Assembly: GCA_902518985.1 (NCBI GenBank)
Contig: CABYIF010000004.1
Location: 1 to 51,721 of the forward strand
Origin: an uncultured Alphaproteobacteria bacterium
Lineage (GTDB): Bacteria > Pseudomonadota > Alphaproteobacteria > HIMB59 > GCA-002718135
Length of the DNA: 51,721 bases
Direction of reading: 5' to 3'
A program made the translations under genes and the position numbers. How positions within the stretch are numbered: the first letter of the stretch is position 1; every line of letters begins with the position of its first letter. The notes below the pieces were generated by a model that saw nothing but the letters and a program-made list of their open reading frames with translations, made no database searches and was not told the DNA's origin. Below, one piece after another: positions 1 through 42,248 of the stretch.

Positions 1-602
1 GTGACAAAGGTTTTTACGCAAGAGATGAATTAAATACTCTCAATAAGTTTGATTCACATTTTATTGGTCATCCAACTAGAAAGGTCAAAGGAATAGAACA
101 TAATACAGGTGCTTTAGGTCACGGATTATCAGTAGCAGTAGGAATGGCAATAGGTCTAAAGCTAGATGAAAAACCACATAAAGTATTTACTCTTTTAGGT
201 GATGGTGAGCTCAGTGAAGGCTCAATATGGGAAGGATTAATGTCAGCTAATAAATACCAATTAGATAATTTAATTATTATTATTGATAGAAATAGACTTC
301 AAATTACTGGAAAGACTGAAGATGTAAATCCTACAGAACCACTAAAAGAAAAATTTTTGTCATTTGGTATGTCTGTTCGAGAAGTTGATGGAAATTCTGT
401 TGAACAATTACAAGATATTTTTAGAAAAATACCTTTTGAAGAAAAAAAACCAAATCTTATTATTGCTAATACTGTTAAAGGAAAAGGTATAAGTTTTATT
501 GAAAACCAAGTTATATGGCATCATAAGGTTCCTACCAAAAATGAATTTCAAGCCGCTCAAAAAGAATTAGATAATGAAAAATTAAGTTTAGAAAATGATT
601 GA
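1..602 (+). CDS. aptA: Transketolase N-terminal (ThDP-binding) subunit, 5' truncated by window edge; probable apulose-4-phosphate transketolase subunit A
   Basis: Frame is open from base 3 (DKGFY...GHPTRKVKGIEHNTGALGHGLSVAVG) into the ORF; GDGELSEG...NRLQ ThDP motif; sits next to the C-terminal subunit, an FGGY kinase and an ApsI-like isomerase. Confidence 0.8.
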   Translation, partial: DKGFYARDELNTLNKFDSHFIGHPTRKVKGIEHNTGALGHGLSVAVGMAIGLKLDEKPHKVFTLLGDGELSEGSIWEGLMSANKYQLDNLIIIIDRNRLQITGKTEDVNPTEPLKEKFLSFGMSVREVDGNSVEQLQDIFRKIPFEEKKPNLIIANTVKGKGISFIENQVIWHHKVPTKNEFQAAQKELDNEKLSLEND

Positions 603-1527
603 AAAAGCTAACTTAGAAATATTTGCAGAAACTTTACTTGATCTAGCAAGAAATGATAAAGATATCATTGTTGTTACAAGTGATTCTAGGGGATCAGGTA
701 AATTAACAAACTTTGGAAAAGAACTTCCAGATCAAATTATTGAAGTTGGAATTGCTGAACAAAATTTAGTTGCAATTTGTGCAGGTCTATCAGCTGTTGG
801 AAAAAAAGTATTTGGAGTATCTCCTTCTAGTTTTTTGACTGCAAGAGCTTTAGAACAAATTAAAAATGACATTGCTTACTCTAATCATCCTGTTACACTT
901 GTTGGGATTAGTTCTGGTGTTAGCTACGGTCAACTTGGATCTACACACCACTCCATTCATGACATTGCTGTATTGAGAGCAATTAACAATTTAAATATTG
1001 TTATCCCTTGTGATAATTTTGAAACAAAAAAAACAATTCAATCGGCAGTAAATTTTGATGAACCATTATTTATAAGATTTGGAAAAAAACCAATGTTAAA
1101 AATACATAATGATAATCAATTATTTAAAATAGGCAAGGGTATCAGAATTAAAGAGGGTAAAGATATAGTGTTTATTGCAACGGGCGAGACTGTTCAAAGA
1201 GCATATCAGGCAATAGAAATACTTCAAAAAGATAATTTTGATTGCACACTAATTAGTATGCACACTATTAGACCTTTTGATGAGAGTCTTTTTTTAGAGT
1301 CTATAAAACATACCAAAGGTATTATAGCAATAGAAGAACATAGTGAAAGTGGAGGTTTGGGAGAAAAATGTGCAAGTATTTTAGCTCAAAAAAAAATAAT
1401 GACGAACTTCAAAATTATTGGTTTTCCAGATGAATATATGGTCAATGGTTCACAAAGTGATGTTCTTGATCATTATAATATGGCGCCTAAAAAATTAGCA
1501 GAAATTGCAAAGAAACTAATAAGTTAA
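595..1527 (+). CDS. aptB: Transketolase C-terminal subunit; probable apulose-4-phosphate transketolase subunit B
   Basis: EVGIAEQN, RALEQIKND and GSTHHS motifs; overlaps the upstream subunit. Confidence 0.8.
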   Translation: MIEKANLEIFAETLLDLARNDKDIIVVTSDSRGSGKLTNFGKELPDQIIEVGIAEQNLVAICAGLSAVGKKVFGVSPSSFLTARALEQIKNDIAYSNHPVTLVGISSGVSYGQLGSTHHSIHDIAVLRAINNLNIVIPCDNFETKKTIQSAVNFDEPLFIRFGKKPMLKIHNDNQLFKIGKGIRIKEGKDIVFIATGETVQRAYQAIEILQKDNFDCTLISMHTIRPFDESLFLESIKHTKGIIAIEEHSESGGLGEKCASILAQKKIMTNFKIIGFPDEYMVNGSQSDVLDHYNMAPKKLAEIAKKLIS

Positions 1528-2993
1528 TGTATTTATCACTTGATCAAAGTACTTCATCTACCACGATTTTTTTATATAATAAAAAATTTAAACTTTTAAC
1601 TAAGCTTTCTAAATCACATAAACAGATTCAAAAATCCAGAGGTTATGTAGAGCATGATGCTAATGAAATAATGAAAAATATATTTTTTTTAGTAAAAAAA
1701 ATTTCTAAAAAAATTAAATATAATAAGGATTTATTTTTAAGCATTACTAACCAAAGGGAAACCTTTGTAATATTTGACAAAAAATCAGGTAAACCTCTCC
1801 ATAATGCAATTGTTTGGCAATGTAGAAGAGGTCAAAAAGTTTGTGATAAAATAAATAAATCAATAAAAAACAAAAATTTAATAAAGAAAAAAACAGGTCT
1901 TACTTTAGACACTTATTTTCCTGCTTCAAAATTAATAGAATTATTAAATTCAAATAAAAAAATTAAAGAAAAATTAAAAAATGGCTCAGCTTTATTTGGA
2001 ACAATTGATACCTTCCTCATTTATCAGTTAACCAATCTAAAAAAATATTCAACTGACTTTACAAATGCGTCCAGAACTCTTTTTTTTGATAATGGGTCAC
2101 TGGTTTGGAGTAAAGAACTTTTAAAATTATTTAAATTAAACTTAGAAAGTCTTCCAGAGGTGAGAGAAAGCTCATCAATATTTGGATACACAAATTTTAA
2201 TGGGATATTAAATAAGAATATTCCTATTTCAGGAGTAATAGGAGATTCACAAGCTTCAATTTTTGCAAATCAATGTTTTAATAAGGGCAATACTAAAATT
2301 ACTTTAGGTACAGGTGCCTCCATCTTAACAAATATAGGCCAGTCATTTGAACATAATAATAATATTATCACTACACTTTCTTATGTTTACAGAAATAAAC
2401 CATTATATTCTTATGAGTGTCTAATTAACTATGCTGGAGCTACAATAAGTTGGCTTAAAAATAATTTAAAAATTATAAGTAATGAGAAAGAGACTAATCA
2501 AGTATTTGTTAATACTAAAAATACTGAAGGTTTAGTTTTTGTTCCAGCTTTTGTTGGTTTGAGCTCTCCTCATTGGAAGCCTAATAGTAAGGCATTGATA
2601 TATGGATTAACACCTTCTATTAACAAGAATCATATAATAAGAGCAGCTCTTGAGTCTATAGCATTTCAAATTAAAGATTATCTAGATGATTTAGAGGTTA
2701 ACAATAAAATAAAATATAATGATATTTTTATTGATGGAGGTATAGTTTCTAATACTTCATTTATTCAGTTCTTAACTAATACTTTAAATAAAAAAATATA
2801 TGTAACTAATTATCAAGATATGTCTTCCTATGGAGCATTAATGATGGGTTTATTAGGTATGAAAATTAAAAAAAATTTCAAAGAAATGGCAGCACTAAAA
2901 CAAAAATATTTAGTTTATACTCCATCAAAAAATAATTCAGCAAACAAAAGTTATGAAAAGTGGAAACTAGTTTTAAAAAAATTTTATTTTTAA
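1527..2993 (+). CDS. aplK: FGGY (glycerol kinase-like) carbohydrate kinase; probable D-apulose kinase
   Basis: DQSTSST, ITNQRET, IVWQCRR, NASRT, GDSQA, RAALESIAFQ; start overlaps the aptB stop; substrate inferred from context. Confidence 0.7.
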   Translation: MYLSLDQSTSSTTIFLYNKKFKLLTKLSKSHKQIQKSRGYVEHDANEIMKNIFFLVKKISKKIKYNKDLFLSITNQRETFVIFDKKSGKPLHNAIVWQCRRGQKVCDKINKSIKNKNLIKKKTGLTLDTYFPASKLIELLNSNKKIKEKLKNGSALFGTIDTFLIYQLTNLKKYSTDFTNASRTLFFDNGSLVWSKELLKLFKLNLESLPEVRESSSIFGYTNFNGILNKNIPISGVIGDSQASIFANQCFNKGNTKITLGTGASILTNIGQSFEHNNNIITTLSYVYRNKPLYSYECLINYAGATISWLKNNLKIISNEKETNQVFVNTKNTEGLVFVPAFVGLSSPHWKPNSKALIYGLTPSINKNHIIRAALESIAFQIKDYLDDLEVNNKIKYNDIFIDGGIVSNTSFIQFLTNTLNKKIYVTNYQDMSSYGALMMGLLGMKIKKNFKEMAALKQKYLVYTPSKNNSANKSYEKWKLVLKKFYF

Positions 2994-2996
2994 AAT

Positions 2997-3974
2997 CTAT
3001 AAAAATTTATAAAGTGATTTCTGTGCAATTTTTAATGCAGTCATTGCATCATGATTAGATTGAGCTTCTTCAAGCGCTTTCATATCTAAATCATCCAAAG
3101 CCTTTTCTATTGATTTTAAGAAGTCAATTGCCTGATTAGCCATCTGTACACTATCTTCTCTAAATGGAAACTGATCAAGTTGCCAAACACCTTCCCAATT
3201 ATTCTTTTTTAAAACATAAAAAAATTCAAATATTTCTATAGGATGCAAGCTACCAGCAATTAGATCGTCATCCCAAGATCTGTAATTGTCATTAACATCC
3301 ATTCCAAATAAGCGACCATAATCTATAGCTAATTGAGCAGAGTCAGCAGCTGACTCACCGCCATAAATGGCATGTCCAAAATCAAGCAATATCCCAATAT
3401 TTGGAAGTCCAATTTTTTCTATACCTAATAAAGTTCTAGAAACAGAGTCATAACTCATTTTAACTCTAGGCTCACGTGGCTTATATTCGATTACAAATTT
3501 TAGATCTGGATTTTCACTTGCTAGTCTTGCAACTCCATCCATTGAATTTTTCCATAATGTTCTGTGATCGACTTGAAAAGGATAATCCCATCCATCTTGA
3601 CCTGGCCACAACTTAACATAAGCTGCATTAAAAAACCGCACGGCATCACAAGCCTGTGTAATAAGTTCATGAGCTCTATTACGAACGCCAGGGTCAGGAT
3701 TTGTAAAAGCCCCTTTTCTAAATTCTTTAGTATAAATCTCTGGAGTAATTCCAATAACTTCTAAATTAACTTTATCTAGCTCATCCTTTATTTCTTGATT
3801 TGAAAAGGAGCCACCAAAATAAGGAAAATTAATATCTACAACTGAGAGATCCTTAACCTGACCTGCTAATTTAATAGCATCCAAGACACTTCTAGGTTCG
3901 CCGTAGCCTTCAGTATTATATCTATCAACGTATGTAGCAAAATGCCAAATACCCGCTCCAAATTTCTGAGTCAT
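2997..3974 (-). CDS. apsI: Xylose-isomerase-like TIM barrel; probable D-apiose isomerase
   Basis: [62 protein letters not shown] match the ApsI family as I recall it; context agrees. Confidence 0.8.
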
Positions 3975-4084
3975 ATATTTTCATACCATAATCTGAAAAT
4001 AGTAGAAATCAAAACGATAATTTCTTTTTCCTGATTTTAGCTTCCATTTATCGAGATGGCACTTAAAAACTGCAAATTGACGCA

Positions 4085-4142
4085 ATTGATACTTATATCA
4101 ATAATTTTTTTAGGTTGTTTCAAATTTGACCTTGATTTGAAA
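4085..4142. promoter_or_regulatory. Two inverted repeats in the divergent apsI / binding-protein promoter region (candidate operators)
   Basis: ATTGATA-ctta-TATCAAT (4085-4102) and TTTCAAAT-N9-ATTTGAAA (4118-4142); AT-rich, so chance is possible. Confidence 0.35.
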
Positions 4143-4192
4143 ACTTGCCCATATTAACGTCCCTCATCTAATAATTATTAGGAGGATATAAT

Positions 4193-5101
4193 ATGAAAAA
4201 ACTTCTTATGACAGTTGTAGCAATCGTATTTGCTACAAGTGCAGCCTTTGCTGAAAGATACGTTATGGTAACTCACGGTGAAGGTAAAGATCCTTTCTGG
4301 CCAGTTGTGCAAAAGGGTGGTGAAGATGCAGCTAGAGCAATCGGTGCTGATTTCGAATACATCTACAACCCTTCAGCTGATATGGCAGATATGGCAAGTT
4401 CAATTCAAGCTGCTGCTGCGACTCAGCCAGACGGTATGGTAATTTCACTACCTGATCCAGATGCGTTAGGCCCTGCAATTAAAGCTGCTGTTGCCGCTGG
4501 TGTACCAGTTGTAACTATGAACTCAGGTCTTGAAAACTCAGCTGCTTTAGGTGCTTTAATGCACGTTGGTCAGCCTGAGTATCTTGCTGGTCAAAAAGCT
4601 GGTGCTAGAGCTGCTTCTGAAGGAGCTACTAAAGCACTATGTATGATTCAAGAAGCATACAATACTGCTCTTGTTGATAGATGTGAAGGTTATGGAGAAG
4701 CTGTTCCAATGGAATTTACAGATACTACTTCTGACCCAGCAACTATCGTAACTCGTGCAACTGCTGCTTTACAAGCTAACCCAGACGTTGATGCAGTTCT
4801 ATCAGTAGGACCTCACGTTTGTGAAGGTGTTGCAAAAGCAATGGATGATCTTGGTATGAGTGGTATTCACCACGCATGTTTCGATTTAAGCCCAGGTGTT
4901 ATGGACTTAATCGGAGCTGGTAAAGTTTCATTTACTATTGACCAACAACAAAGACTACAAGGCTATATGCCAATTATAGTTCTACACTTATACAATAACA
5001 GTGCAGGATTATTACCAGGTGCAAATATTCCATCTGGACCAGGATTTGTTGATAAGTCTAATGCTGCTTCAGTTTCAGCGTTAGCTGGTATCGATAGATA
5101 A
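4193..5101 (+). CDS. Sugar/polyol ABC transporter periplasmic binding protein (CUT2, RbsB-like fold)
   Basis: Signal peptide ending AAFA, VTHGEGKDPFW, TIDQQQRLQGY; strong SD AGGAGG at 4180-4185; biased codon use (GCT, GGT, AAC, TTC) suggesting high expression. Confidence 0.92.
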   Translation: MKKLLMTVVAIVFATSAAFAERYVMVTHGEGKDPFWPVVQKGGEDAARAIGADFEYIYNPSADMADMASSIQAAAATQPDGMVISLPDPDALGPAIKAAVAAGVPVVTMNSGLENSAALGALMHVGQPEYLAGQKAGARAASEGATKALCMIQEAYNTALVDRCEGYGEAVPMEFTDTTSDPATIVTRATAALQANPDVDAVLSVGPHVCEGVAKAMDDLGMSGIHHACFDLSPGVMDLIGAGKVSFTIDQQQRLQGYMPIIVLHLYNNSAGLLPGANIPSGPGFVDKSNAASVSALAGIDR

Positions 5102-5112
5102 CAATTAATTTT

Positions 5113-5138
5113 AAGCCGCCTTCGGGCGGCTTTTTTTT
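5113..5138 (+). terminator. Intrinsic terminator between binding protein and permease
   Basis: AAGCCGCC-TTCG-GGCGGC followed by T8. Confidence 0.9.
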
Positions 5139-5146
5139 ACAATATT

Positions 5147-6739
5147 ATGAATTCTAACGCACAACCTCAAAGAAAAGAATCAGATAGGCTAAAACCTAAA
5201 AGATGGTACTCAGCATTTTTTGCAAGACCAGAAGTTGGACCTTTGGGTGTTATGCTTTTACTTTTTGCAATGCTAGGTTATTTTTCAATCCCGCAAGGAG
5301 AGTTTTCATTAAATCCATTTGCTGGTGAAGGTTTTAATGCACTTGGAATTAGGAATAACTTTAGGGTTATTTCACAGTTAGGTATTGTTGCACTTGGAGC
5401 TGGTATGCTCATTATAGCAGGTGAATTTGATCTTAGTGTTGGTTCAATGATTGGTTTTGCTGGAGGAGCAATGGCGATGATACTTAAATGGGGATTTGCT
5501 GTTGTTATACCTTACATATCATTTGAAGGCAGTTTTCATTTAGAAGGTATAAAATTATTTGAAATAACAAATGTTTCTCCCTTAACAGCGCTTTTAATTA
5601 CTTTAGTAATGACTCTTTCTTTTGGATGGTTTCAAGGCTTTATAATAGTTAAAAGCGGAATCGCTTCTTTTATTGTTACCTTAGGAGGTTTATTTTTCCT
5701 AAGAGGTCTTACAGAAGTTACATATCGAGCCTTTAATAAAAAACCTGATCAAACAGCTGGGTCTACAACAGTGACCGATCTTCCAGATATAAAAAATATC
5801 ATCAATGTTCCTGGTCATGGAGAAATGGAAAGGGATGCTGCAAAAGCTTTGTCAAATGAAGAACTATTAGAAATTTTAAAAACAGCTCCAGAAAAAACAA
5901 TTAATAAACTTACAGAACAACTAACATACATTAACGAAAAAGTTGCGGTTACTAAAACACTTTTACAAAAACAAAAGATGGTAGATACAATGCAAAATAC
6001 TTTAGATAACGCTATAAAGTCAGGAAACGAATCAATGGTTGAAGCAATTCAGAAAAAAATTGATGCAGGTATTCAAGTACCAGAAATAGCAGCTAAAGCA
6101 GTAACAGATTTAGATTTAGCTAGAGAGTATTTAGATTCTTTTATCACTGCAAGACCAGTGGCTAATTTCTTTGGTGGAGATATTATGGAACCTTTCTTTG
6201 ATTGGTTATACTTTACCGCCGATTGGAATGTAAATATGTTTGGTAACAAGTTTGCACCTGGACTTTATTCTTGTGTGATGATTTGGGTGTTATTAGCAAT
6301 AATATGTTATTTTGTATTAAGTAAAACTCAAGTAGGTAACTGGATCTATTCCACAGGTGGTAACTTATCTGCTGCACAAGCAAATGGTGTGCCAACCAAT
6401 AAAGTTAAAATAGGACTGTTTATGTTTACTGCTTTTTGTGCAACAATGTTTGCAGCGTGTCAGGTATTCGAAGTCAATACAGCTGATACAGCTAAAGGAA
6501 ATCTAAAAGAATTAGAAGCTATCGCAGCAGCAGTAATTGGAGGAGTTGTTTTAACTGGGGGGTTTGGAACTATTTTAGGAATCATGTTAGGTGCTGTTAT
6601 TTTTGGAATTGCAAAGGAAGCTTTCTTTTATATACCTGGTGTTGATGGATCATTTTATAGAGTATTCTTAGGCGCAGTATTAGTTGTTGCAGCACTTACA
6701 AATGAAAATATAAGAAAAAGAATAATGGGAAGTATTTGA
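5147..6739 (+). CDS. Sugar ABC transporter permease (BPD_transp_2/RbsC family) with a large soluble insertion
   Basis: GEFDLSVGS, ASFIVTLG, GGNLSAAQANGV, ELEAIAAAVIGG; 530 aa. Confidence 0.92.
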   Translation: MNSNAQPQRKESDRLKPKRWYSAFFARPEVGPLGVMLLLFAMLGYFSIPQGEFSLNPFAGEGFNALGIRNNFRVISQLGIVALGAGMLIIAGEFDLSVGSMIGFAGGAMAMILKWGFAVVIPYISFEGSFHLEGIKLFEITNVSPLTALLITLVMTLSFGWFQGFIIVKSGIASFIVTLGGLFFLRGLTEVTYRAFNKKPDQTAGSTTVTDLPDIKNIINVPGHGEMERDAAKALSNEELLEILKTAPEKTINKLTEQLTYINEKVAVTKTLLQKQKMVDTMQNTLDNAIKSGNESMVEAIQKKIDAGIQVPEIAAKAVTDLDLAREYLDSFITARPVANFFGGDIMEPFFDWLYFTADWNVNMFGNKFAPGLYSCVMIWVLLAIICYFVLSKTQVGNWIYSTGGNLSAAQANGVPTNKVKIGLFMFTAFCATMFAACQVFEVNTADTAKGNLKELEAIAAAVIGGVVLTGGFGTILGIMLGAVIFGIAKEAFFYIPGVDGSFYRVFLGAVLVVAALTNENIRKRIMGSI

Positions 6740-7521
6740 TGGATAAAAAGCCTTTAATTGAAATCAAAGATCTAGTTAAAAAATTTGGAAGCTTTACTGC
6801 TCTAAATGGAGTCTCTTTAGACGTATTCCCAGGAGAAGTTCATGCCTTGCTCGGTGATAATGGTGCCGGTAAGTCAACATTAATAAAAGTTTTATCTGGA
6901 GTTCATACTGCTACAAATGGTGAAATAAAGGTTGATGGAGAGATAGTAAAGTTTGCTTCACCAAGACAAGCATCTGATGCCGGAATCGGAACAGTTTATC
7001 AGGATCTCGCTTTAAATAATTTAACATCTGTTACATTAAATTTTTTCTTAGGTAGAGAATTAAAAAAAGGACCTGGTCCTTTTGGTCTTATGCAAATGGA
7101 CGAAATGCATAAGATAACTATTGAAGAAATGTCTAAGATTGGAATTAATATTGCTGATCCAAATCAAAAGGTTGGAACAATGTCTGGAGGTCAAAGGCAA
7201 ACTTTAGCAATTGCACGTGCAATTTATTTTGGGGCAAAAATATTAATCCTTGATGAGCCAACTTCAGCTCTTGGTCAAAAACAACAAATGGAAGTTCTAA
7301 AAACAATTAAAAAGGTTCAACGACTAGGTAATATTGCCATTATTCTTATCACACATAACGAAATTCATGCACGACTTATTGCAGACCGTTATACCTTCTT
7401 AAGTTTGGGTGAAGTTATTGGAAATGGTTTAGCGAGTGAGCTTGGTGGAGAAGATGTAAAAAGATTAATGGCAGGTGGCGCAGAAATAGGCGACCTTGCA
7501 AAGGAGTTAGATCTAAAATAG
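6739..7521 (+). CDS. Sugar ABC transporter ATP-binding protein (single domain)
   Basis: GDNGAGKST Walker A, MSGGQRQ signature, ILDEPT Walker B; ATG at 6739 overlaps the permease TGA. Confidence 0.93.
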   Translation: MDKKPLIEIKDLVKKFGSFTALNGVSLDVFPGEVHALLGDNGAGKSTLIKVLSGVHTATNGEIKVDGEIVKFASPRQASDAGIGTVYQDLALNNLTSVTLNFFLGRELKKGPGPFGLMQMDEMHKITIEEMSKIGINIADPNQKVGTMSGGQRQTLAIARAIYFGAKILILDEPTSALGQKQQMEVLKTIKKVQRLGNIAIILITHNEIHARLIADRYTFLSLGEVIGNGLASELGGEDVKRLMAGGAEIGDLAKELDLK

Positions 7522-7566
7522 ATCATACCATTTGACTATATCTATGTTTTTTGATTAATTAATTGG

Positions 7567-8415
7567 ATGTTATTAGCTAAGAATGACGATTATAATAAAC
7601 AAGACGTTCTAAATGAACTTTTAAAAGGTAGTGGTGTCGTTGTAATTAAAGATGTTTATAGTTCTGAAGATATTGAAATAACAAGAAATATTATTAATGA
7701 ATTTGCTTCTACACAAGAGCAAAAAGAATCTCATTTTAATGCTGAAGCAGAAGCCTCAGGTAAAATTCACTTACAGCAAAGAGTATGGAACCTTTTTGGA
7801 AAGGGAGCGATTTTTGGAAAACTAATCTCTAGCGATGTTATATTTGATATAATGTCTTCTTTTTTAGGAAATGAATTTACTTGCGGATCTTATTGCGCAA
7901 GTAGATTGATGCCAGGAGCACCTGGTCAGGAATTACACATAGATTATCCTTATTGGGATTATTATAAAAAAGATACATTTCCAATGGGATTGAATAGTTC
8001 TTTCCCTCAAAATTGTCAGGCCACAATTCCCTTAGATGTTTGCTCTGAATTATCAGGTGCAACCGCTTATGTTCCAGGATCTCAAAAAAAACTTCATTAT
8101 CCTAATGATAAAGATGATTTTTCTGATCAAAAACAAATGACAGCAAATCCTGGTGATTTAGTTTTATTTAATGGTAACTGTTGGCATGGTGCATCACCAA
8201 ATAATTCTGATCATCAAAGAGCTGTTTTGCTAATAGAATTTCTTCCTAAATATATTAAACCAGTAGAGGATCTTGTAACTTATCTTGATGATAATTTTAA
8301 AAAAAACTGTCCTGATAGAGTCAAACAACTTTTAGGATTAAATTATAAATATCCAAAAATCATGGATGTAAGTAAGACTGTAAATGATATTGGATTAGGC
8401 TATAAAGCCAAATAA
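7567..8415 (+). CDS. PhyH-family 2-oxoglutarate/Fe(II) dioxygenase
   Basis: HID (HxD) motif, GATAYVPGS, distal WHGA and downstream Arg. Confidence 0.85.
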   Translation: MLLAKNDDYNKQDVLNELLKGSGVVVIKDVYSSEDIEITRNIINEFASTQEQKESHFNAEAEASGKIHLQQRVWNLFGKGAIFGKLISSDVIFDIMSSFLGNEFTCGSYCASRLMPGAPGQELHIDYPYWDYYKKDTFPMGLNSSFPQNCQATIPLDVCSELSGATAYVPGSQKKLHYPNDKDDFSDQKQMTANPGDLVLFNGNCWHGASPNNSDHQRAVLLIEFLPKYIKPVEDLVTYLDDNFKKNCPDRVKQLLGLNYKYPKIMDVSKTVNDIGLGYKAK

Positions 8416-8421
8416 ATTTCT

Positions 8422-9567
8422 ATGAAAAATATTGGTGTAATTGGATGCGGTAATATTCTTGAAACTTATTTGAGATCTCAAGAATATTTTAATAATATCA
8501 ATTTTGTGTCATGTTCAGATATTAATATGGAGTTAGCTAAAAAGACTGCTTCAGAAAATAATCTAAAAGCGCAAACAGTTGAAGAATTATTAAGTGATAA
8601 TTCAATAGATATAGTTTTAAACATTACAATTCCTCAAGCTCATTTTGAAGTATCCAAAAAAATATTAGAAGCAGGAAAGCATGTCTATTCAGAAAAACCC
8701 ATGAGCGTCAAATATGATCAAGCAAAAGAATTGCTTGAAATTTCTAATAGAAAAAATTTATATTTTGGTAATGCCCCAGATACTTTTCTTGGAGGTGGCG
8801 GTCAATTATCTAGAGAAATTATTGACTCAAATGAACTAGGAGAAATACTAACTGGTAACTTTATTTTTGCCTTTCCAGGCGTTCAAGATTTTCATCCAAA
8901 TCCTGAGTCTTGGTTCCAAGATGGTGGAGGGCCTTTAATTGATATGGGTCCTTATTTTTTTACAACACTTGTTAACCTATTAGGACCTGCTAAAAATATT
9001 AGAAGCAGAGGAGTTAAGTTTTCTAATAAAAGAGAATATAAAGCAGGACCAAAAAAAGGAAAATATTTTAATGTTGATATTCCTACTTCGTATATGTTTA
9101 ATTTAGAATTCCAGAATAAATCAATTATACAAGGTTTTATTTCTTTTGATGTTTTAAATCACAAAAGAAATCACGTTGAACTTTATGGCACAAAAGGATC
9201 AATCATTGTGCCTGACCCAAATATGTTTGGTGGTCCTGTAATGACATCTGGCCAGTTAGGTTCAGATTGGCTAGAACATAGTGTTGAATCTAAGCCTTTA
9301 GGTAAAACAAATATATTTAATAAAACTGTTAGAAGTAATGAGGCACCAAAGCAGTCTAATTACAGAGGTGTTGGATTGTCTGAAATGGTTGACTCCATTG
9401 AAAATCAAAGACAACAAAGATGCAATGGAGAACTTGCCTTACATGTTCTTGATATTATTGAAAGTGCCATGGTAGCTGCAAATGATAAAACAGAAGTAAA
9501 TATGAGATCAACTTGTAAAAAACCTCAGCCATTTAATGATAAAGAAATTATAAATTTGTTGAAATAA
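8422..9567 (+). CDS. Gfo/Idh/MocA family NAD(P)-dependent oxidoreductase
   Basis: GVIGCGNI, GKHVYSEKP, GGPLIDMGPY. Confidence 0.9.
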   Translation: MKNIGVIGCGNILETYLRSQEYFNNINFVSCSDINMELAKKTASENNLKAQTVEELLSDNSIDIVLNITIPQAHFEVSKKILEAGKHVYSEKPMSVKYDQAKELLEISNRKNLYFGNAPDTFLGGGGQLSREIIDSNELGEILTGNFIFAFPGVQDFHPNPESWFQDGGGPLIDMGPYFFTTLVNLLGPAKNIRSRGVKFSNKREYKAGPKKGKYFNVDIPTSYMFNLEFQNKSIIQGFISFDVLNHKRNHVELYGTKGSIIVPDPNMFGGPVMTSGQLGSDWLEHSVESKPLGKTNIFNKTVRSNEAPKQSNYRGVGLSEMVDSIENQRQQRCNGELALHVLDIIESAMVAANDKTEVNMRSTCKKPQPFNDKEIINLLK

Positions 9568-9622
9568 ATTTTTATATTATTATATTTTAGTCAATTAATT
9601 TAATAAGAAAATACTTTATATT

Positions 9623-10603
9623 ATGAAAGTTGATTTAAATAAGTGGTATAGACCTGAGGTAAACAAAGAAGAATTTAAAAAACTTTGTGAAAAATCTGAT
9701 TGGCAAGGTTTCAAACATGTTGTTATTTATTTTAGCACTCTCTTTTTTGTCGGATATCTAGCATATTATACATATGGCACATGGTGGAGCTTAATATTCT
9801 TTCTTATATATGCTAACATTTATGCGTGTAGTGATTCCATATGGCATGAGACAGGTCATCAAACAGCTTTTAAGTCAAAATTCTGGAATAACTTTTTTTA
9901 CCAAATTGCAAGTTATATGGATAATTTTGAACCAGTTAGATGGAAGTGGTCGCACTTTAAGCATCATACTCAAACAGCATATGATGAGCCTCATGATTTT
10001 GAAATTGCCATAAGAAAGCCAACTGACTTATTTTTGTTTTTTTCATATTTTATTCCATTTTCTCAAATGATAACTTTTCATAAAACTTTACAATTTGAAA
10101 CTATTAAACATGCTATAGGTATAACTACACCAGTTATGAAGCATGCTATTCCTGAAAAGGAAAGATATAAATGTAGACGGTCTGCAAGAATACACGTTAG
10201 TATATGGTTAATAGTTATTGTTAGTTCTATTTACTTTCAATCTTGGCTACCTGTTTTATATTTAGTTCTTCCTGGATTTTATGGAAAAACACTTGTAGCT
10301 TGCTTTGGATTAACACAACATACGGGGCTGCAAGAAAATATTAAAGATCATAGATACAGCACAAGAACGGTTTATCTTAATCCAATATTTAGTTTTTTAT
10401 ATTGGCATATGGAATATCATATTGAACATCATATGTTTCCAACTGTACCTTCTTATAACCTACCAAAACTACATGAGATGATAAAGGATAAGATGCCACC
10501 GGCTAAAAGAGGATTATTAGGAGCTTATAAAGAAATTTTACCGGCCATTTTTAAACAAGCTAGAAATCCAGATTATCAGATTAAATTAAGTGTTCCTAGT
10601 TAA
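9623..10603 (+). CDS. mocD: Membrane di-iron oxygenase of the fatty-acid-desaturase fold, MocD-like
   Basis: His boxes WHETGH, WSHFKHH and YHIEHH; YHIEHHMFPTVPSYNLPKLHE and WHETGHQTAF resemble rhizopine-catabolism MocD. Confidence 0.72.
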   Translation: MKVDLNKWYRPEVNKEEFKKLCEKSDWQGFKHVVIYFSTLFFVGYLAYYTYGTWWSLIFFLIYANIYACSDSIWHETGHQTAFKSKFWNNFFYQIASYMDNFEPVRWKWSHFKHHTQTAYDEPHDFEIAIRKPTDLFLFFSYFIPFSQMITFHKTLQFETIKHAIGITTPVMKHAIPEKERYKCRRSARIHVSIWLIVIVSSIYFQSWLPVLYLVLPGFYGKTLVACFGLTQHTGLQENIKDHRYSTRTVYLNPIFSFLYWHMEYHIEHHMFPTVPSYNLPKLHEMIKDKMPPAKRGLLGAYKEILPAIFKQARNPDYQIKLSVPS

Positions 10604-11426
10604 TTTTTTCAGCTAACTCTAGAAATTTATCAAATTCATTATCTTCTATTTGAACCGTTATTTTAGGATCATTAAAATTTTTGTTTATTGTGTCCTCATG
10701 AAATTCTCTAAAAGCTCTCACTCTCTCATTTTGTAATCTTTGATATTCTTTTCTAAAATTTCTGTAAACCCTAGCATGTCTAGGTATATGGCCATCATTC
10801 CATCCTAAAACATCATTTGAAAATAAAAACTGTGCATCACAATCTGAGCCACTTCCCATTGACATTGTAATTATTTCAACCTTTTTTGTAATAACCTCTG
10901 CAACTTTTGGAGGAACAACCTCAAGCTCAACACCAATTACCCCAGCCTCTTGTAATTCTAGAGTATTTTTTAAAACCCCTACTGCTTCAACTGCAGTTTT
11001 ACCAATTGCTCGAAGACCGCCAATCCATGTAGATTTTCCAGGAACTAGACCAACATGACCTATTGTTGGAATATTTTCTTGGCGCATTGCCTTGATCCAT
11101 TTTAAACTATAATTTCCGACATAGATGCAATCTACTCCAAAAGATAAATAATTATGTGCATATTTAATAGCTTCGTATTCAGAAGCAGGTGGATAGGGAC
11201 CAGATGATTGCATAAAGCAATTTGGCGCTACTTCACGTATTTTTTTTACATCATCTAAAGTAGCATTAATACCAAATCTTGGCAGGTCATGAGCAGCAAC
11301 AATATAATCAATACCTGCTTCTTCTGCAGCTGCACCTTCTTCAATAGTATGAACAAATAGATTACTTAGTTGTCTCTTACCCTTTGATTTTAAATAATCA
11401 TAAACGGTTAATTTTTTTCTCAACAA
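10596..11426 (-). CDS. Divergent PanB (ketopantoate hydroxymethyltransferase)-like protein
   Basis: Keeps GHVGLVP, LQEAG..GVELEVVP and SMGSGSDCDAQFL..DVLG; lacks LVGDS, DMPF and KLEG. Confidence 0.8.
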   Translation of the reverse strand: MLRKKLTVYDYLKSKGKRQLSNLFVHTIEEGAAAEEAGIDYIVAAHDLPRFGINATLDDVKKIREVAPNCFMQSSGPYPPASEYEAIKYAHNYLSFGVDCIYVGNYSLKWIKAMRQENIPTIGHVGLVPGKSTWIGGLRAIGKTAVEAVGVLKNTLELQEAGVIGVELEVVPPKVAEVITKKVEIITMSMGSGSDCDAQFLFSNDVLGWNDGHIPRHARVYRNFRKEYQRLQNERVRAFREFHEDTINKNFNDPKITVQIEDNEFDKFLELAEKIN

Positions 11427-11434
11427 AATTTAAT

Positions 11435-11860
11435 TTACCAACTACCTGAATTCTCCATGGATTTCCATGGTTCTTGTTCTGGTAGTGACTCTCCTTCTTG
11501 TAAGATTTCAATCGATATTCCGTCAGGTGAACGAACAAAAGCCATATGACCATCTCTTGGAGGTCTATTAATTTTAACACCGTTTTTCATTAGTTTGTCA
11601 CAAATCTCATAGATATTTTTTACACTATATGCAAGATGCCCAAAATTTCTGCCACCTCCATACTCTTCCTTATCCCAATTATAAGTAAGTTCTAATAAGC
11701 CAGTTTTTTCATCACTATTTTCTGCTGCTAAAAAAATTAATGTAAATCTTCCTTTTTCACTCTCTCTTCTTCTTATTTCTTTTAATCCTAAAAGATTACA
11801 ATAAAAATTTAGAGATTTTTCAATATTTTCTATTCTAACCATTGTGTGTAAATATTTCAT
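11435..11860 (-). CDS. gloA: Lactoylglutathione lyase (glyoxalase I, VOC family)
   Basis: YLHTMVRI, ELTYNWD, FGHLAY, SPDGISIE. Confidence 0.9.
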   Translation of the reverse strand: MKYLHTMVRIENIEKSLNFYCNLLGLKEIRRRESEKGRFTLIFLAAENSDEKTGLLELTYNWDKEEYGGGRNFGHLAYSVKNIYEICDKLMKNGVKINRPPRDGHMAFVRSPDGISIEILQEGESLPEQEPWKSMENSGSW

Positions 11861-11931
11861 ATAATATTTATTATATTTAATTTATTTTTAGACTACAATT
11901 AAAATATAATTAAAATCATAGAGGGGAAGAA

Positions 11932-13245
11932 ATGCAAGATTATTTTAAGAATATACCTGAAATACAATTCGAAGGGGAAGATAGTAACAACCCATTAGCT
12001 TTTAAATTCTATGATGAGAACAAAAATATTTTAGGAAAATCGATGAAAGAACATTTCCGCTTTGCAACTTGTTATTGGCATACTTTTACTTGGCCAGGAT
12101 TGGACCCCTTTGGCGGACAAACGTTTGAAAGACCATGGATGAAAAGTGGCGATTCAATGAAAATGGCAGAGGAAAAACTTAATTGTGCCTTTGATTTCTT
12201 TACTAAAATAAAGACACCATTTTTCTGTTTCCACGATAGAGATATTGCTCCAGAAGGGTCAAACTACAAGGAAACACAAAAAAATTTCATGTACATTGTT
12301 GATTTAATGGAGAAGAAGATTGAAGAAACAAAAATGAAATTATTATGGGGTACTGCTAATGCCTTTTCACATAAAAGATATATGAGTGGAGCTTCAACGA
12401 ATCCAGATCCAGAAGTATTTGCCTACAAAGCAGCACAAGTTAAAGATTGCATGGACGCAACATTAAGACTTGGTGGACAAAACTATGTTTTGTGGGGTGG
12501 CAGAGAAGGTTATGAAACAATATTAAACACTAACATGTCTAAGGAAATGGATAATTTGAAAAGATTTCTTGAATTAGTAGTTAATTATAAACATAAAATT
12601 GGATTTAAGGGTCAAATTTTAATTGAACCTAAGCCACACGAACCAACAAAACATCAGTATGATTTTGACTCTGCAGCATGTCTTGCTTTTATTAGAAAAG
12701 CTGGACTTGAAGGAGAAATTAAACTTAATATAGAAGCAAATCATGCGACTCTATCTGGACATAACTATGAACATGAAATAGCATACGCAATTGCAAATAA
12801 TGCATTGGGAAGTTTAGATATTAATAGAGGTGATACATTAATTGGTTGGGATACAGACCAGTTTCCAAATAATCCAGCTGATTTAATTATGGCCTTTTAC
12901 TTTATATTCAGTAATGGAGGACTTGGTAATGGAGGATTAAATTTCGATGCTAAGATTAGAAGGCAATCTATTGATCCGGAGGATTTGTTTTACGCACATA
13001 TTGGTGGAATGGATGTTTGTGCTAAAACATTAATTGCTGTTGAAAAATTAATTAAAGATAATGTTATTCCAAAATTCATAGAAGATCGATATTCTGATTG
13101 GGATAGTGAATTAGGCAAATTTATACATAATAAAGATGCATCATTAGACTCTATCCATAAAAGAGTTATCGATAGTAATATTGAACCAAAAACACGATCT
13201 GGAAGACAAGAATATTTGGAAAATATTATAAACAAATATTTATAG
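11932..13245 (+). CDS. xylA: Xylose isomerase (class II)
   Basis: YWHTF, FHDRD, WGGREGY, EPKPHEP, NIEANHA, WDTDQF, NFDAK. Confidence 0.96.
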   Translation: MQDYFKNIPEIQFEGEDSNNPLAFKFYDENKNILGKSMKEHFRFATCYWHTFTWPGLDPFGGQTFERPWMKSGDSMKMAEEKLNCAFDFFTKIKTPFFCFHDRDIAPEGSNYKETQKNFMYIVDLMEKKIEETKMKLLWGTANAFSHKRYMSGASTNPDPEVFAYKAAQVKDCMDATLRLGGQNYVLWGGREGYETILNTNMSKEMDNLKRFLELVVNYKHKIGFKGQILIEPKPHEPTKHQYDFDSAACLAFIRKAGLEGEIKLNIEANHATLSGHNYEHEIAYAIANNALGSLDINRGDTLIGWDTDQFPNNPADLIMAFYFIFSNGGLGNGGLNFDAKIRRQSIDPEDLFYAHIGGMDVCAKTLIAVEKLIKDNVIPKFIEDRYSDWDSELGKFIHNKDASLDSIHKRVIDSNIEPKTRSGRQEYLENIINKYL

Positions 13246-13300
13246 AACTTATTTAATAAGTTAAGTATTTAGATATTATTAAGGTATTAGTATTAGTAAC

Positions 13301-14230
13301 GTGAAGTATTTTGAATTAGATACACAATCTCAGTTTAAAGAAAAAAACCTATGTTTGGCAATAGGTAATTTTGACGGCTTTCATAAGGGGCATATTGCAA
13401 TACTTGAATCTTTGAAAAAAATTGCCAACCAAAAAAAACAACCTATTGCTATTATGAGCTTTAATCCCCACCCAAGAGAATTTTTTGAAAATAAAAATGA
13501 AAATTTCAATATTTATTCCAAATTAGATAAAATTAATTTTCTTAAGAAATTTGGTATCGATATTTATATTGAATTTATTTTTGATAAAAATCTATCAGAT
13601 TTAACTGCTAACGAATTTGTTAAAAATATTTTAGTTGATAAGCTTGATATAAAAAATGTGGTTGTAGGTAAAGATTTTAAATTTGGTAAAAATAGATCTG
13701 GTAACTTTAAAACATTAGATAATTTTTCAAAAGAAAATAATTTTGATGTTCATTTAATAGAGTCAGTAATGCTTTCTGATGGTTCTGACAAATATTCCTC
13801 TTCGATAATTAGAAGTAATATAAAAAATGGTGAAATAGAAAAGGCAAATTTTGCTTTAGGGCGCAATTGGCATATGACTGGAAAAATTATCGAAGGTGAT
13901 AAAAGAGCAAGAAGAATCAATTTTCCAACTGCAAATGTAATACCTGGTAATCATATTTTTCCAAAAAAAGGAGTTTATTGTGTTAAAGTCAATATTAATA
14001 ATGAAAAATATTTAGGTATTTCAAATTTTGGTGAAAGACCCACCGTTGATGGTTCTAAATTACTCTTGGAAACTCATATATTTAATTTTAATCAAGAAAT
14101 ATACGGTTATGATTTGACTGTTGAATTTCTTACATTTATTAGATCTGAACAAAAATTTGCTAATTTTGATAAATTAACTAAACAGATTAAAAAAGATATA
14201 GAAACAGCAAGAAAATATCACAACGTTTAA
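13301..14230 (+). CDS. ribF: Bifunctional riboflavin kinase/FAD synthetase
   Basis: GNFDGFHKGH, FPTAN, ETHIF; GTG start; upstream of ileS. Confidence 0.95.
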   Translation: MKYFELDTQSQFKEKNLCLAIGNFDGFHKGHIAILESLKKIANQKKQPIAIMSFNPHPREFFENKNENFNIYSKLDKINFLKKFGIDIYIEFIFDKNLSDLTANEFVKNILVDKLDIKNVVVGKDFKFGKNRSGNFKTLDNFSKENNFDVHLIESVMLSDGSDKYSSSIIRSNIKNGEIEKANFALGRNWHMTGKIIEGDKRARRINFPTANVIPGNHIFPKKGVYCVKVNINNEKYLGISNFGERPTVDGSKLLLETHIFNFNQEIYGYDLTVEFLTFIRSEQKFANFDKLTKQIKKDIETARKYHNV

Positions 14231-41187: not shown

Positions 41188-42240
41188 ATGAAAAAAATTA
41201 GAGGCCCTGCTATATTTCTTGCTCAATTTGTTGGAGATGAAGATCCATTCAATTCATTAGATGGTATTTCCAAATGGGCTTCCAATTTAGGTTATAAAGG
41301 TGTGCAGATACCCTCATGGGATAAACGTCTGATTGATTTATCTAAAGCTGCTGAGAGTAAAAGCTATTGTGATGAAATAAAAGGCATTTTAAATGAAAAT
41401 AAAATTGAGCTAACAGAATTATCAACTCATCTCCAAGGACAGTTAGTAGCAGTTCATCCTGCATATGATATTCCATTTGATGGATTTGCAGATGAGGGCG
41501 TTAGAGGCAATCCATCAAAAAGAAAAGATTGGGCAATAAATCAATTAATGATGGCTGCAAAAGCATCTAAAAATTTAGGGTTGACAGAGCATGCTACATT
41601 TTCTGGAGCACTAGCTTGGCCTTATATGTATCCATGGCCTCAACGACCATCAGGTTTAGTTGAAGAAGCATTTAATGAACTTGCAAATCGTTGGTTACCA
41701 ATTCTAAACGCTTTTGATGAATCAGGGATAAATTTATGTTATGAAATTCATCCTGGTGAGGACCTGCATGATGGCATTTCATTTGAAATGTTTCTAGAAA
41801 AAGTAAAAAATCATCCGAGATGCAATATGCTTTATGATCCAAGTCATTTTGTACTTCAGCATTTAAATTATCTTGATCATATTGACATTTACCATGAAAA
41901 ATTGAAAATGTTTCATGTTAAGGATGCTGAATTAAACCCAACAGGTAAGCAGGGAGTTTATGGAGGTTTTCAATCTTGGATAGATAGAGCTGGAAGATTT
42001 AGATCCCTAGGAGATGGTCAGGTAGATTTTAAGTCAATTTTTTCTAAGTTGTCTCAGTACAATTTCAATGGATGGGCGGTACTTGAATGGGAATGTTGTA
42101 TTAAAAGTCCTCAACAGGGAGCAGAAGAAGGCGCAAAATTTATTAGTGATCACATAATTGATGTTACTGAAAAAGCTTTTGATGACTTTGCAGGCTCCGG
42201 TATGGATCAAGACACAAATAAGAAACTTCTAGGCATATAA
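41188..42240 (+). CDS. Sugar phosphate isomerase/epimerase-family TIM barrel, resembling 2-hydroxy-3-keto-glucal hydratases
   Basis: GPAIFLAQF, STHLQGQL, YEIHPGEDLHDG, YDPSH, FHVKDAE, LEWECC. Confidence 0.8.
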   Translation: MKKIRGPAIFLAQFVGDEDPFNSLDGISKWASNLGYKGVQIPSWDKRLIDLSKAAESKSYCDEIKGILNENKIELTELSTHLQGQLVAVHPAYDIPFDGFADEGVRGNPSKRKDWAINQLMMAAKASKNLGLTEHATFSGALAWPYMYPWPQRPSGLVEEAFNELANRWLPILNAFDESGINLCYEIHPGEDLHDGISFEMFLEKVKNHPRCNMLYDPSHFVLQHLNYLDHIDIYHEKLKMFHVKDAELNPTGKQGVYGGFQSWIDRAGRFRSLGDGQVDFKSIFSKLSQYNFNGWAVLEWECCIKSPQQGAEEGAKFISDHIIDVTEKAFDDFAGSGMDQDTNKKLLGI

Positions 42241-42248
42241 AATTTTAA

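Follow-up and report, generated by a model that had tools for sequence, protein, structure and literature searches.

Near the start of a contig from an uncultured marine bacterium, an ABC importer is encoded beside two oxygenases, a dehydrogenase and a relative of the pantothenate synthesis enzyme PanB, which raises the question of what substrate such a combination of genes might serve. The contig (CABYIF010000004.1; C4) was analyzed from its first base over 51,721 nucleotides, a stretch referred to here as the window, and forms part of a 1.18 Mb assembly (GCA_902518985.1) of 54 contigs which is 70% complete. The genes of the window find their nearest relatives in single-cell genomes of uncultured Alphaproteobacteria and in a metagenome-assembled genome of the Pelagibacteraceae. 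The host of the locus is a SAR11-type marine alphaproteobacterium, and the G+C content of the window is ~30%, with most of it falling at about 26-32%. The open reading frames (ORFs) of the array lie at exactly the positions given in a first-pass annotation, with gaps of -4 to 55 bp between the forward-strand genes. The array consists of the following features, and all Pfam assignments exceed the gathering scores:

4193..5101, + strand: periplasmic solute-binding protein (SBP) of the CUT2 type, MocB/inositol-SBP-like (Pfam Peripla_BP_4)
5113..5132, + strand: terminator-like hairpin with T-run, directly 3′ of the SBP gene
5147..6739, + strand: ABC permease, 530 amino acids (BPD_transp_2), 45 bp after the SBP gene
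6736..7521, + strand: ABC ATPase, 261 amino acids, single nucleotide-binding domain (ABC_tran), overlapping the permease gene by 4 bp
7567..8415, + strand: PhyH-family Fe(II)/2-oxoglutarate (2OG) oxygenase (PF05721), after a gap of 45 bp
8422..9567, + strand: Gfo/Idh/MocA NAD(P) dehydrogenase, GFO (PF01408 and PF22725), after a gap of 6 bp
9623..10603, + strand: MocD-like membrane di-iron oxygenase of the FA_desaturase family (PF00487), after a gap of 55 bp
10596..11426, - strand: PanB-like protein (PF02548), convergent with the MocD-like gene and overlapping it by 8 bp

We suggest, with about even confidence, that the region 4193-11426 represents a module for the uptake and oxidative tailoring of a cyclitol or sugar carrying a substituent, most likely an O-methyl group, coupled to the capture of a one-carbon (C1) unit. 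In the scheme envisaged, the importer would bring in a methylated polyol, the methyl group of which would be hydroxylated by the MocD-like enzyme with electrons supplied by a flavodoxin or a Rieske ferredoxin from another part of the genome, a step modeled on the part assigned to MocDEF in the breakdown of rhizopine and on the general scheme of oxidative sugar demethylation. The hemiacetal would then collapse to the free polyol and a C1 unit at the formaldehyde level, and the latter would be handled by the PanB-like enzyme, probably by loading it onto tetrahydrofolate for the FolD/FTHFS route of C1 oxidation. The freed hydroxyl would be oxidized by the dehydrogenase to a product entering inositol (iol) or pentose catabolism, and the PhyH enzyme may perform a second hydroxylation, or a demethylation, at another position. 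Both FolD and FTHFS are present in the genome. At its 70% completeness no class-III formaldehyde dehydrogenase scores above cut-off, and a class-III alcohol dehydrogenase was not found with the queries used.

The arrangement of these genes is not a product of chance, as the same order recurs in other genomes. The succession SBP-permease-ATPase-PhyH-GFO-MocD/PanB-like-gloA-xylA-ribF is kept in single-cell genomes (L001 and L004-L006) at 70-92% protein identity. The first-pass annotation had made its reading depend on co-occurrence of the genes elsewhere, and they do co-occur, as an array in related genomes and as a MocD-like/PanB-like pair over a wider range. PanB-like orthologs sharing at least 87% identity are found in seven of the 116 genomes of the family, G000 included, while PanB-like genes of any kind occur in 105/116 of its species genomes, with up to seven copies per genome. 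Among the 55 PanB-like genes of 40 sampled family loci, a MocD-like gene lies within 3 kb of 45 and within 300 bp of 40, these being descriptive counts, not statistics, as the kin are not independent. The 40 regions were centered on PanB-like hits and picked across identity tiers from the 150 places listed, which leave out 112 further places. A frequent arrangement is MocD-MocF-MocE-PanB-like-MocD-PanB-like beside an ABC transporter and genes for lactonases, dehydratases and aldolases. The ten PanB-like genes that lack a MocD neighbor belong mostly to one subfamily, in which a PhyH-GH4-PanB-like operon is accompanied by a second GH4 gene, a flavoprotein and a CUT1 binding protein; this MocD-less subfamily is thus still placed beside an oxygenase together with carbohydrate genes. 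In one such locus (L082, 2820-8831), as well as in L075-L077, L079 and L080, the PanB-like gene is translationally coupled to GH4 and a tryptophan-halogenase-like flavoprotein is encoded nearby.

The pair also extends beyond the family. PanB-like proteins (e-value up to 1e-40) are found in 19 of the 401 genomes, and 13 of the 307 genera, of a class-wide sample of Alphaproteobacteria, and a MocD-like gene adjoins the PanB-like gene in six of 20 loci outside the family. The Pfam neighbor scan covered five of these 20 loci (L113, L114, L115, L118 and L127), and longest-ORF calling is unreliable for those of high G+C content. In one locus (L115) the PanB-like gene is accompanied by a di-iron enzyme of the FA_hydroxylase family, MocE/F and a LacI regulator, and in another (L127) MocE is found with TIM-barrel, dehydrogenase and IolC genes. 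On both rhizobial plasmids that were inspected, R. etli pRetIE4803a and an S. meliloti megaplasmid, an operon behind a divergent LacI regulator encodes, in order, a MocD-like protein, a Rieske MocE-like protein, an FAD reductase and a PanB-like protein. In a plasmid collection, MocD-like genes are present in 285 records and PanB-like genes in 268, with closely similar counts by genus (MocD-like/PanB-like: Rhizobium 146/141; Sinorhizobium 85/86; Ensifer 9/9), and the two genes are separated by 1.7-2.0 kb on one strand in all five plasmid records that appear in both listings.

A conserved array need not be a single pathway, and the alternative that survives best is that the importer, PhyH and dehydrogenase form one unit, beside which a mobile MocD/PanB-like cassette serving other substrates has been juxtaposed next to gloA-ribF-ileS. 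The partners of the cassette vary at this same site and include MocE/F, additional MocD copies, an SMP30 lactonase, enolase-type dehydratases, a DapA-like aldolase, an IlvD-type dehydratase and iol genes. Further genes are inserted into some copies of the array, namely a short-chain dehydrogenase/reductase (SDR) gene between PhyH and the dehydrogenase (L001 and L006) and a Gig2-like putative oxygenase (PF07350; Bitscore: 405) between the dehydrogenase and MocD (L004, 8713-9948; also L005, L012 and L017), neither of which is found in the window. The PanB-like gene moreover stands on the opposite strand, and the 55 bp gap ahead of the MocD-like gene is accompanied by a promoter-like site (9559-9586; 10/12 matches), although such sites are no commoner in the window than in shuffled sequence (49 observed; 47.3 expected). 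Against a juxtaposition of this kind stands the order of importer, PhyH, GFO and MocD/PanB-like, which is found in every window-type locus that is long enough (L001, L004, L005, L006 and L046-L048), and PhyH-GFO is likewise found in company with MocD/PanB-like where the genes are arranged differently (L051, L057, L069 and L073). The gaps of 6-55 bp fit a single transcript, as does the lack of a terminator-like site between the genes from ATPase to MocD, where only weak stems inside genes are found. We consider this alternative unlikely, although it has the best claim after the methylated-polyol module.

The nature of the substrate may be hinted at by the genes to which the array is joined in its relatives. 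In two genomes (G036 and G044) with an SBP 91% identical to that of the window, a co-directional gene for a 614 amino acid protein precedes the SBP gene by 96 bp, and this protein shares 87% identity with an IolD that exceeds its equivalog cut-off (Bitscore: 762; cut-off: 715). In G030 an apiose-type module is inserted between the same IolD and the SBP array. A more distant variant (L012) carries MocD (60% identity), TIM-barrel, dehydrogenase (59% identity) and Gig2-like oxygenase genes inside an iol cluster, flanked by IolG, IolD and transporters at one end and by IolC, an IolB-like protein, a class II aldolase and IolE at the other; its IolG, IolD, IolC and IolE all exceed their cut-offs. 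Among five relatives with a window-type locus, IolE scores over the cut-off in four and IolC in one (cut-off: 300), two further IolC candidates reaching 298.5 and 298.6 bits, and a true IolG (Bitscore: 377) is encoded on contig C19 of the genome to which the window belongs. The link to cyclitols that had been proposed at the outset is therefore strengthened by a MocB-like SBP, by iolD directly before the importer and by a variant lying within iolG/D/C/E. Other variants tie the cassette to lactonase, dehydratase and aldolase genes of sugar-acid pathways, and accordingly it probably serves several substrates, aldoses as well as cyclitols. In three loci (L135/L136, about 3900-8100; L137, 322-4359), genes for an enolase-superfamily dehydratase, an SDR, a 286 amino acid protein and an FMN-dependent L-lactate-dehydrogenase-like protein lie upstream of iolD; the set resembles a non-phosphorylative deoxy-sugar (fuconate-type) pathway, and the dehydratase exceeds no NCBIfam equivalog cut-off.

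The protein on which the C1 part of the scheme turns is annotated in the source records as 3-methyl-2-oxobutanoate hydroxymethyltransferase, and only clusters named PanB were returned when it was used as a query of the ESM Atlas. It matches PF02548 with 116 bits, but covers only positions 90-256 of the profile, and it falls below both the panB equivalog TIGR00222 (Bitscore: 90.7; cut-off: 207.55) and NF001452 (Bitscore: 101.7; cut-off: 272). When aligned to E. coli PanB (1M3U; e-value: 1.3e-16), Asp84 is replaced by Ser, Lys112 by Tyr and Glu114 by a gap, residues which we take to form, with Asp45-Ser46 of the GDS motif, the Mg2+/2-oxo-acid site of the E. coli enzyme. Compared with the canonical PanB of its own genome, encoded on contig C16, it keeps the C-terminal half but has none of the GDS, D-x-P and K-x-E motifs. 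H124 and E169 align with His136 and Glu181 of 1M3U, presumably the catalytic residues, and are invariant in 34 aligned sequences. These 34 diverse members share G97, H124, G126, G162, E169, G193, D197 and D205 without exception, and D99, E167 and H217, the last within a P-R-H-A motif, are nearly invariant. As the Mg2+ and oxo-acid ligands are lost, the protein is not a true PanB, but probably represents a new enzyme family derived from the PanB fold. Its diversity is modest, with 70 clusters at 50% identity (e-value up to 1e-30), and its homologs form more than 1000 protein clusters in metagenomes, where the close relatives are marine and bear generic names only. A 542 amino acid protein (P0241) contains two PanB-like stretches and is a tandem fusion.

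The first-pass annotation had drawn on the property of PanB of moving a hydroxymethyl unit to or from tetrahydrofolate, but with the Mg2+/oxo-acid site lost this chemistry cannot simply be transferred to the PanB-like protein. Since the residues of that site are lacking, a tetrahydrofolate-linked role is suggested by fold and genomic context. We put forward as a tentative, and on balance doubtful, proposal that the PanB-like proteins constitute a new PanB-derived family passing the C1 unit from oxidative O-demethylases, either the MocD di-iron or the PhyH 2OG enzyme, to tetrahydrofolate.

The same observations can be read in favor of a C-branched substrate. C-methyl-inositols occur in algae, and a C-methyl or C-hydroxymethyl cyclitol or sugar might be hydroxylated at its C-methyl group by MocD and converted into a ketone by the dehydrogenase, whereupon a retro-aldol reaction of the PanB-like enzyme would deliver the C1 unit to tetrahydrofolate. 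It is established that PanB chemistry forms and cleaves a C-CH2OH bond adjacent to a carbonyl, the dehydrogenase is always part of the array, and loss of the oxo-acid/Mg2+ site fits a substrate other than a 2-oxo acid. Several PanB-like copies per genome would likewise be easier to reconcile with an enzyme specific for its substrate than with a general handler of formaldehyde, and a module for an apiose-type branched sugar lies next door. However, the retro-aldol reaction is left without an obvious catalyst, there being no metal site for the enolate, and the PanB-like and MocD proteins show no co-diversification. The rhizobial operon of MocDEF and PanB-like genes lacks a dehydrogenase, and the sole recorded function of MocDEF is in the catabolism of the O-methylated rhizopine. 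The plant compounds met by rhizobia are, as far as the accessible text of one study goes, O-methyl-inositols such as pinitol (PMC5789663). A C-branched substrate is accordingly regarded as rather improbable.

Returning to the methylated-polyol module, the MocD-like protein (PF00487; Bitscore: 121.9; gathering score: 29.7) carries the His boxes H75xxxH79, H111xxH114H115 and H266xxH269H270, which are invariant in 43 aligned relatives, and shares 41% amino acid identity with the 'hydrocarbon oxygenase MocD-like' proteins of rhizobial plasmids; no solved structure matches its sequence at an e-value up to 0.01. The Rieske protein MocE and the FAD reductase MocF are not encoded in the window locus, where MocD therefore stands without its usual MocDEF neighbors. 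The 70% complete genome holds a distantly related 109 amino acid Rieske ORF on contig C13 (31% identity), and reductase matches are weak. Locus variants that do carry MocE/MocF include L007 and L057, among others. One variant (G030) has an SBP, permease and ATPase 96%, 95% and 96% identical to those of the window, and encodes MocE and MocF beside its PanB-like gene. A further module in the same genome as the window is located as follows:

L043 (own genome C3:32000-51000), 3696-15833: second MocD/PanB-like module

This module comprises genes for a CUT1 transporter, a second MocD (MocD2), a flavodoxin on the opposite strand, an aldehyde dehydrogenase, a second PanB-like protein, a CUT2 transporter, ThuA and a dehydrogenase. 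In the orthologous module of G057 (L081) the neighbor of MocD2 is a Rieske MocE-like gene and not the flavodoxin gene, an exchange which supports the feeding of the oxygenase by small redox proteins. The C3 flavodoxin thus offers a possible electron donor for the MocD-like enzyme of the window, whose own locus has none.

The PhyH-family protein (PF05721; Bitscore: 76.3; cut-off: 22) contains H124-x-D126 and H207, as well as R218 for 2OG binding, with the roles of these residues assigned by analogy. Its matches to solved structures are all distant (e-value: about 1e-6), and its gene adjoins that of the dehydrogenase in all relatives compared. The dehydrogenase matches PF01408 and PF22725, and scores below the IolG equivalog TIGR04380 (Bitscore: 50.7; cut-off: 355).

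On the import side, the SBP (Peripla_BP_4; Bitscore: 133.6) finds its top-scoring NCBIfam model in the rhizopine SBP model NF052284, the cut-off of which is not reached (Bitscore: 241; cut-off: 420). Its closest solved relative by sequence is 4RU1 (e-value: 6.8e-48), and a structural model of the SBP (pLDDT: 88) superimposes on this structure with a Z-score of 38.6 and a root-mean-square deviation of 1.7 over 280 residues, at 36% identity. 4RU1 is presumably an inositol (myo-inositol) complex. By structure comparison, 4RY0, 5HQJ and 4ZJP, presumably apiose binders, are only 18-20% identical to the SBP. A homolog search with the SBP returned only close marine relatives with generic names. The SBP gene and the start of the permease gene (positions 4001-6000) have a G+C content of 37%, against the range given above for most of the window. 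The SBP and permease fit the families expected of a CUT2 importer; the ATPase (ABC_tran; Bitscore: 113) is, however, not the fused two-domain protein of ~500 amino acids, and aligns with the first half only of such CUT2 sugar ATPases. The permease is unusual in that BPD_transp_2 matches two stretches of it, with transmembrane-like segments at residues 30-185 and 368-517 in a hydropathy scan, and a hydrophilic, helix-rich insert of ~180 amino acids (residues about 186-367) lies between the two membrane blocks. The full-length protein, insert included, is kept in relatives at 81-95% identity.

The hairpin that follows the SBP gene has a stem of eight pairs, six of them G-C, and is followed by TTTTTT; it may act as an attenuator giving an excess of binding-protein mRNA. 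RNA-library contigs from four metatranscriptome runs in three studies cover the SBP gene, some without any difference, and such contigs also touch the permease, ATPase, PhyH, MocD-like, gloA and xylA genes, although parts of the region are without cover in some runs. Cover drops past about position 5100, which is a hint only, and the depth amounts to hundreds to thousands of words on the SBP gene and to single digits elsewhere. Since contig depth cannot rank genes, neither co-expression nor silence is claimed for any of them. Four joints among the RNA contigs, each seen in single low-depth contigs at 88% likeness, were disregarded. The contigs, which cannot prove transcription, lend weak support to the locus being in use in the sea. 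In the DNA runs, a fraction of at most 0.49 of the sampled words matched, which gives no basis for claims on habitat or strain.

The resemblance of the SBP to a rhizopine-binding protein invites the alternative of an amino-cyclitol substrate (rhizopine or inosamine), used partly as a nitrogen source, in which MocD would demethylate, PhyH would deaminate oxidatively and the dehydrogenase would link to inositol catabolism. Kanamycin B dioxygenase, a member of the PhyH family, removes an amino group oxidatively, and it is among the distant matches of the PhyH protein (e-value: 0.03); this match is, however, not significant, and unrelated fungal dioxygenases match the protein better. MocA-, MocB- and MocD-like proteins are encoded together, as they are in the moc locus according to the available part of the source (PMC10107442). 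Although the rhizopine model is the best NCBIfam match of the SBP, the score falls far under its cut-off, no MocR-type regulator or aminotransferase is found in the locus, and the literature searched on SAR11 with rhizopine or inositol contains no report of inosamine in seawater. We therefore hold an amino-cyclitol substrate to be very unlikely. The more mundane view that the FA_desaturase protein is an ordinary lipid or hydrocarbon desaturase or hydroxylase and the PanB-like protein an enzyme of pantothenate synthesis, their proximity to sugar genes being meaningless, follows the Pfam names (fatty acid desaturase; ketopantoate hydroxymethyltransferase) and the corresponding names in the sources, but is scarcely credible, as the canonical panB on C16 has the GDS, D..P and K.E motifs that the PanB-like family lacks, up to seven PanB-like copies occur in streamlined genomes, and the pair sits among transporter and sugar/cyclitol genes in SAR11, rhizobia, where the regulators are of the LacI type, and other Alphaproteobacteria.

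A number of points weigh against the module for a methylated polyol. Each chemical step of the scheme, and the substrate as well, is one that we infer, and the scheme assigns no firm role to PhyH. The PanB-like protein, judged by its sequence, is without the residues that perform the chemistry of PanB. Free formaldehyde reacts with tetrahydrofolate without an enzyme, and the need for a tetrahydrofolate-loading enzyme is thus not obvious; the presence of up to seven PanB-like copies per genome is also odd for a generic C1 handler. This copy of the locus is without MocE/MocF or a reductase, the electron donor being assumed to lie elsewhere in the 70% complete genome. Only IolG is over its cut-off in this incomplete genome, IolD, IolE and IolC not being found with the queries used. 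Twelve of the 20 PanB-like loci of other Alphaproteobacteria contain no Moc component within about 7 kb. Co-diversification of MocD and PanB-like proteins is not clear (Mantel r: 0.19; 357 of 5000 permutations as high), in a test on 18 representative pairs out of 47 nearest-neighbor pairs, where the 'nearest MocD' is ambiguous if MocD flanks both sides. The island is furthermore a mosaic, with SDR and Gig2-like insertions and sugar-acid variants, and consequently its neighboring genes need not form one pathway, and aldoses may be the substrates of some variants of the cassette. The matching of each PanB-like copy to a MocD of its own was dropped on the strength of the Mantel r of 0.19, and prediction of a complex between the MocD-like and PanB-like proteins yielded none (score: 0.00), which is evidence in neither direction.

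The genes on both sides of the array are:

11435..11860, - strand: glyoxalase I-like gene, gloA (PF00903), 8 bp upstream of the PanB-like gene and co-directional with it
11932..13245, + strand: xylose isomerase gene, xylA (TIGR02630), divergent from gloA at 71 bp
2997..3974, - strand: xylose-isomerase-like TIM-barrel sugar isomerase, TIM1 (AP_endonuc_2), divergent from the SBP gene
3..2993, + strand: split transketolase, the N part cut by the contig start and followed by the C part, and FGGY kinase (Pfam)

The core genes ribF, ileS and lspA, a DUF3035 gene and pgi lie downstream of the module. The gloA product reaches a borderline score against TIGR00068 (Bitscore: 118.4; cut-off: 120), and the gene is conserved beside ribF at 79-89%, also in loci in which no PanB-like gene is its neighbor (L008, L012 and L017). 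As it stays beside ribF whatever adjoins, gloA is probably a core anchor gene that is unrelated to the module, and not one of its members. The xylA product scores well above its cut-off (Bitscore: 661.2; cut-off: 533.25), and the gene, which is shared by window-type loci and L050/L052, escaped detection in L008 and L012; the proposed entry into pentose metabolism through this isomerase amounts to adjacency only. TIM1 matches PDB 3KTC with 443 bits and is 95% identical in G030, where its gene follows tktN-tktC-FGGY. Against the E. coli SE15 proteins, the tktC product shares 34% identity with AptB and the FGGY kinase 27% with AplK; the kinase scores higher on glycerol kinase models. In G030 these apiose-type genes are preceded by genes for a DUF2291-like protein, a two-domain ATPase, a permease and an SBP, the last of these sharing 41% identity with its counterpart in the E. 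coli SE15 apiose cluster. With a transporter of its own in G030, the set upstream is a separate, self-contained module, which adjoins the array as a neighbor and does not flank it as part of one block, and the contig starts inside it, cutting off its transporter. Taken together, the initial reading stands in part, in the co-occurrence of the genes and the link to cyclitols, and gives way on the chemistry of PanB, gloA, the apiose flank and entry through xylA.

Further genes of related type occur at a distance. A second split-transketolase pair (C20:13472-14907; 27-36% identity) and a second TIM-barrel isomerase (C20:22244-23197; 35% identity to TIM1) are encoded elsewhere in the genome. Within the window, two ORFs of 350 and 383 amino acids at 41188-43400 show weak matches to IolE (Bitscore: 59) and IolG (Bitscore: 57), and are possibly a TIM-barrel and Gfo/Idh/MocA sugar pair.

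Should the methylated-polyol module prove correct, it would tie a class of substrates to one of the commonest uncharacterized transporters of the ocean, and would provide a function for a PanB-derived family that annotation pipelines mislabel as pantothenate synthesis. For the mocDEF-panB-like operon of about 270 rhizobial plasmid records, demethylation of pinitol or methyl-inositol would become a testable function. The removal of methyl groups would also be tied to the tetrahydrofolate-linked oxidation of C1 units, which is described for SAR11 in the part of the source available (PMC3160333). If the PanB-like enzyme indeed delivers the C1 unit to tetrahydrofolate, the most abundant heterotrophs of the ocean would strip methyl groups from dissolved sugars and cyclitols, gaining both the carbon skeleton and the energy of C1 oxidation, and the same cassette would explain the use of methyl-inositols of the pinitol type by rhizobia. 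The only marine sugar demethylase in the literature cited here, as described in the accessible part of the source, is a P450 of Bacteroidetes (PMC6292453), and the window suggests that SAR11-type bacteria possess another kind of system built on oxygenases.

Among known systems, the closest in gene content is the moc locus of Sinorhizobium meliloti L5-30 and Rhizobium leguminosarum (mocDEF, mocR, mocBA and mocC), which, in the portions of the sources available, shares with the window a MocB-type SBP, a MocA-type dehydrogenase, a MocD-type oxygenase and a link to inositol (PMC10107442, PMC5789663). The window, however, lacks MocE, MocF, MocR and MocC and has PhyH and the PanB-like protein in addition; its ATPase has a single domain, its permease carries the insert of ~180 amino acids, its SBP scores 241 bits where the rhizopine model requires 420, and its host is a marine oligotroph and not a legume symbiont. 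The same portions of these sources assign MocDEF to the catabolism of rhizopine, in concert with the inositol pathway (PMC10107442, PMC5789663). Homologs of mocDEF in R. mesoamericanum rise 1.5-2.1-fold with root exudate of which pinitol is the top component, a rise which the authors read, in the accessible text, as rhizopine catabolism (PMC5789663) and which gives circumstantial support to a role on methyl-inositols.

The rhizobial operon noted above (IE4803_PA00405-00402; S. meliloti HB772_29910-29895) contains the same pair, at 41% (MocD-like) and 43-44% (PanB-like) identity to the window. The R. etli copy adjoins a gene for a xylose-isomerase-like TIM-barrel protein. The rhizobial operon differs from the window in having its own electron-transfer proteins and LacI regulator, and in lacking a transporter, PhyH and a dehydrogenase within the operon. 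The literature searched yielded no description of its function, and no publication pairing 'mocD' with 'panB'. In Pseudomonas syringae from woody hosts, mocDEF is located directly beside xylA2 and outside the rhizopine locus, with a function that was unclear to the authors, and no PanB-like gene or transporter is mentioned in the accessible text (PMC5132102). The counterpart in the window is the MocD-like gene 1.3 kb from xylA, a likeness drawn from the description and not from sequence.

Formaldehyde is released when sugars are O-demethylated oxidatively, and methylated carbohydrates build up in the surface ocean as though they resisted degradation, according to the part of the source available (PMC6292453). 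The 6-O-methyl-D-galactose demethylase CYP236A of marine Bacteroidetes follows the same scheme as that proposed here, in that the methyl group is hydroxylated to give the free sugar and formaldehyde, and it requires a ferredoxin and a reductase. It is, however, a heme P450 unrelated to the membrane di-iron and 2OG/Fe enzymes of the window, and no PanB-like partner is mentioned in that text (PMC6292453). The hosts of CYP236A are degraders of polysaccharides, whereas the host of the window is a free-living oligotroph that takes up monomers. In a survey of SAR11 binding proteins, inositol, xylose and CUT2 are absent from the main text, as far as it was available (PMC11485210).

Compared with PanB itself (PDB 1M3U and 1OY0), the PanB-like protein shares the fold, His136 (H124), Glu181 (E169), a G-x-G..C-D-x-Q stretch and a C-terminal F-P motif; it has lost Asp45/Ser46, Asp84 and Lys112/Glu114, while E167 and a P-R-H-A motif that includes H217 are gains specific to the family. 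In architecture, the upstream neighbors of the array match D-apiose pathway I of Pectobacterium and E. coli ST131 (apsI, aplK, aptA, aptB, ABC transporter and DUF2291; names from PMC13001218), but they show only the low identities to AplK and AptB given above. The claim that the combination of genes in the window is undescribed holds for the literature searched, in which none was found and from which most subscription-journal papers, including the original moc papers, were missing. We suggest that the module is known in kind, as oxidative tailoring of the MocDEF type which feeds the catabolism of inositol or sugars, and that its new element is probably the PanB-like family.

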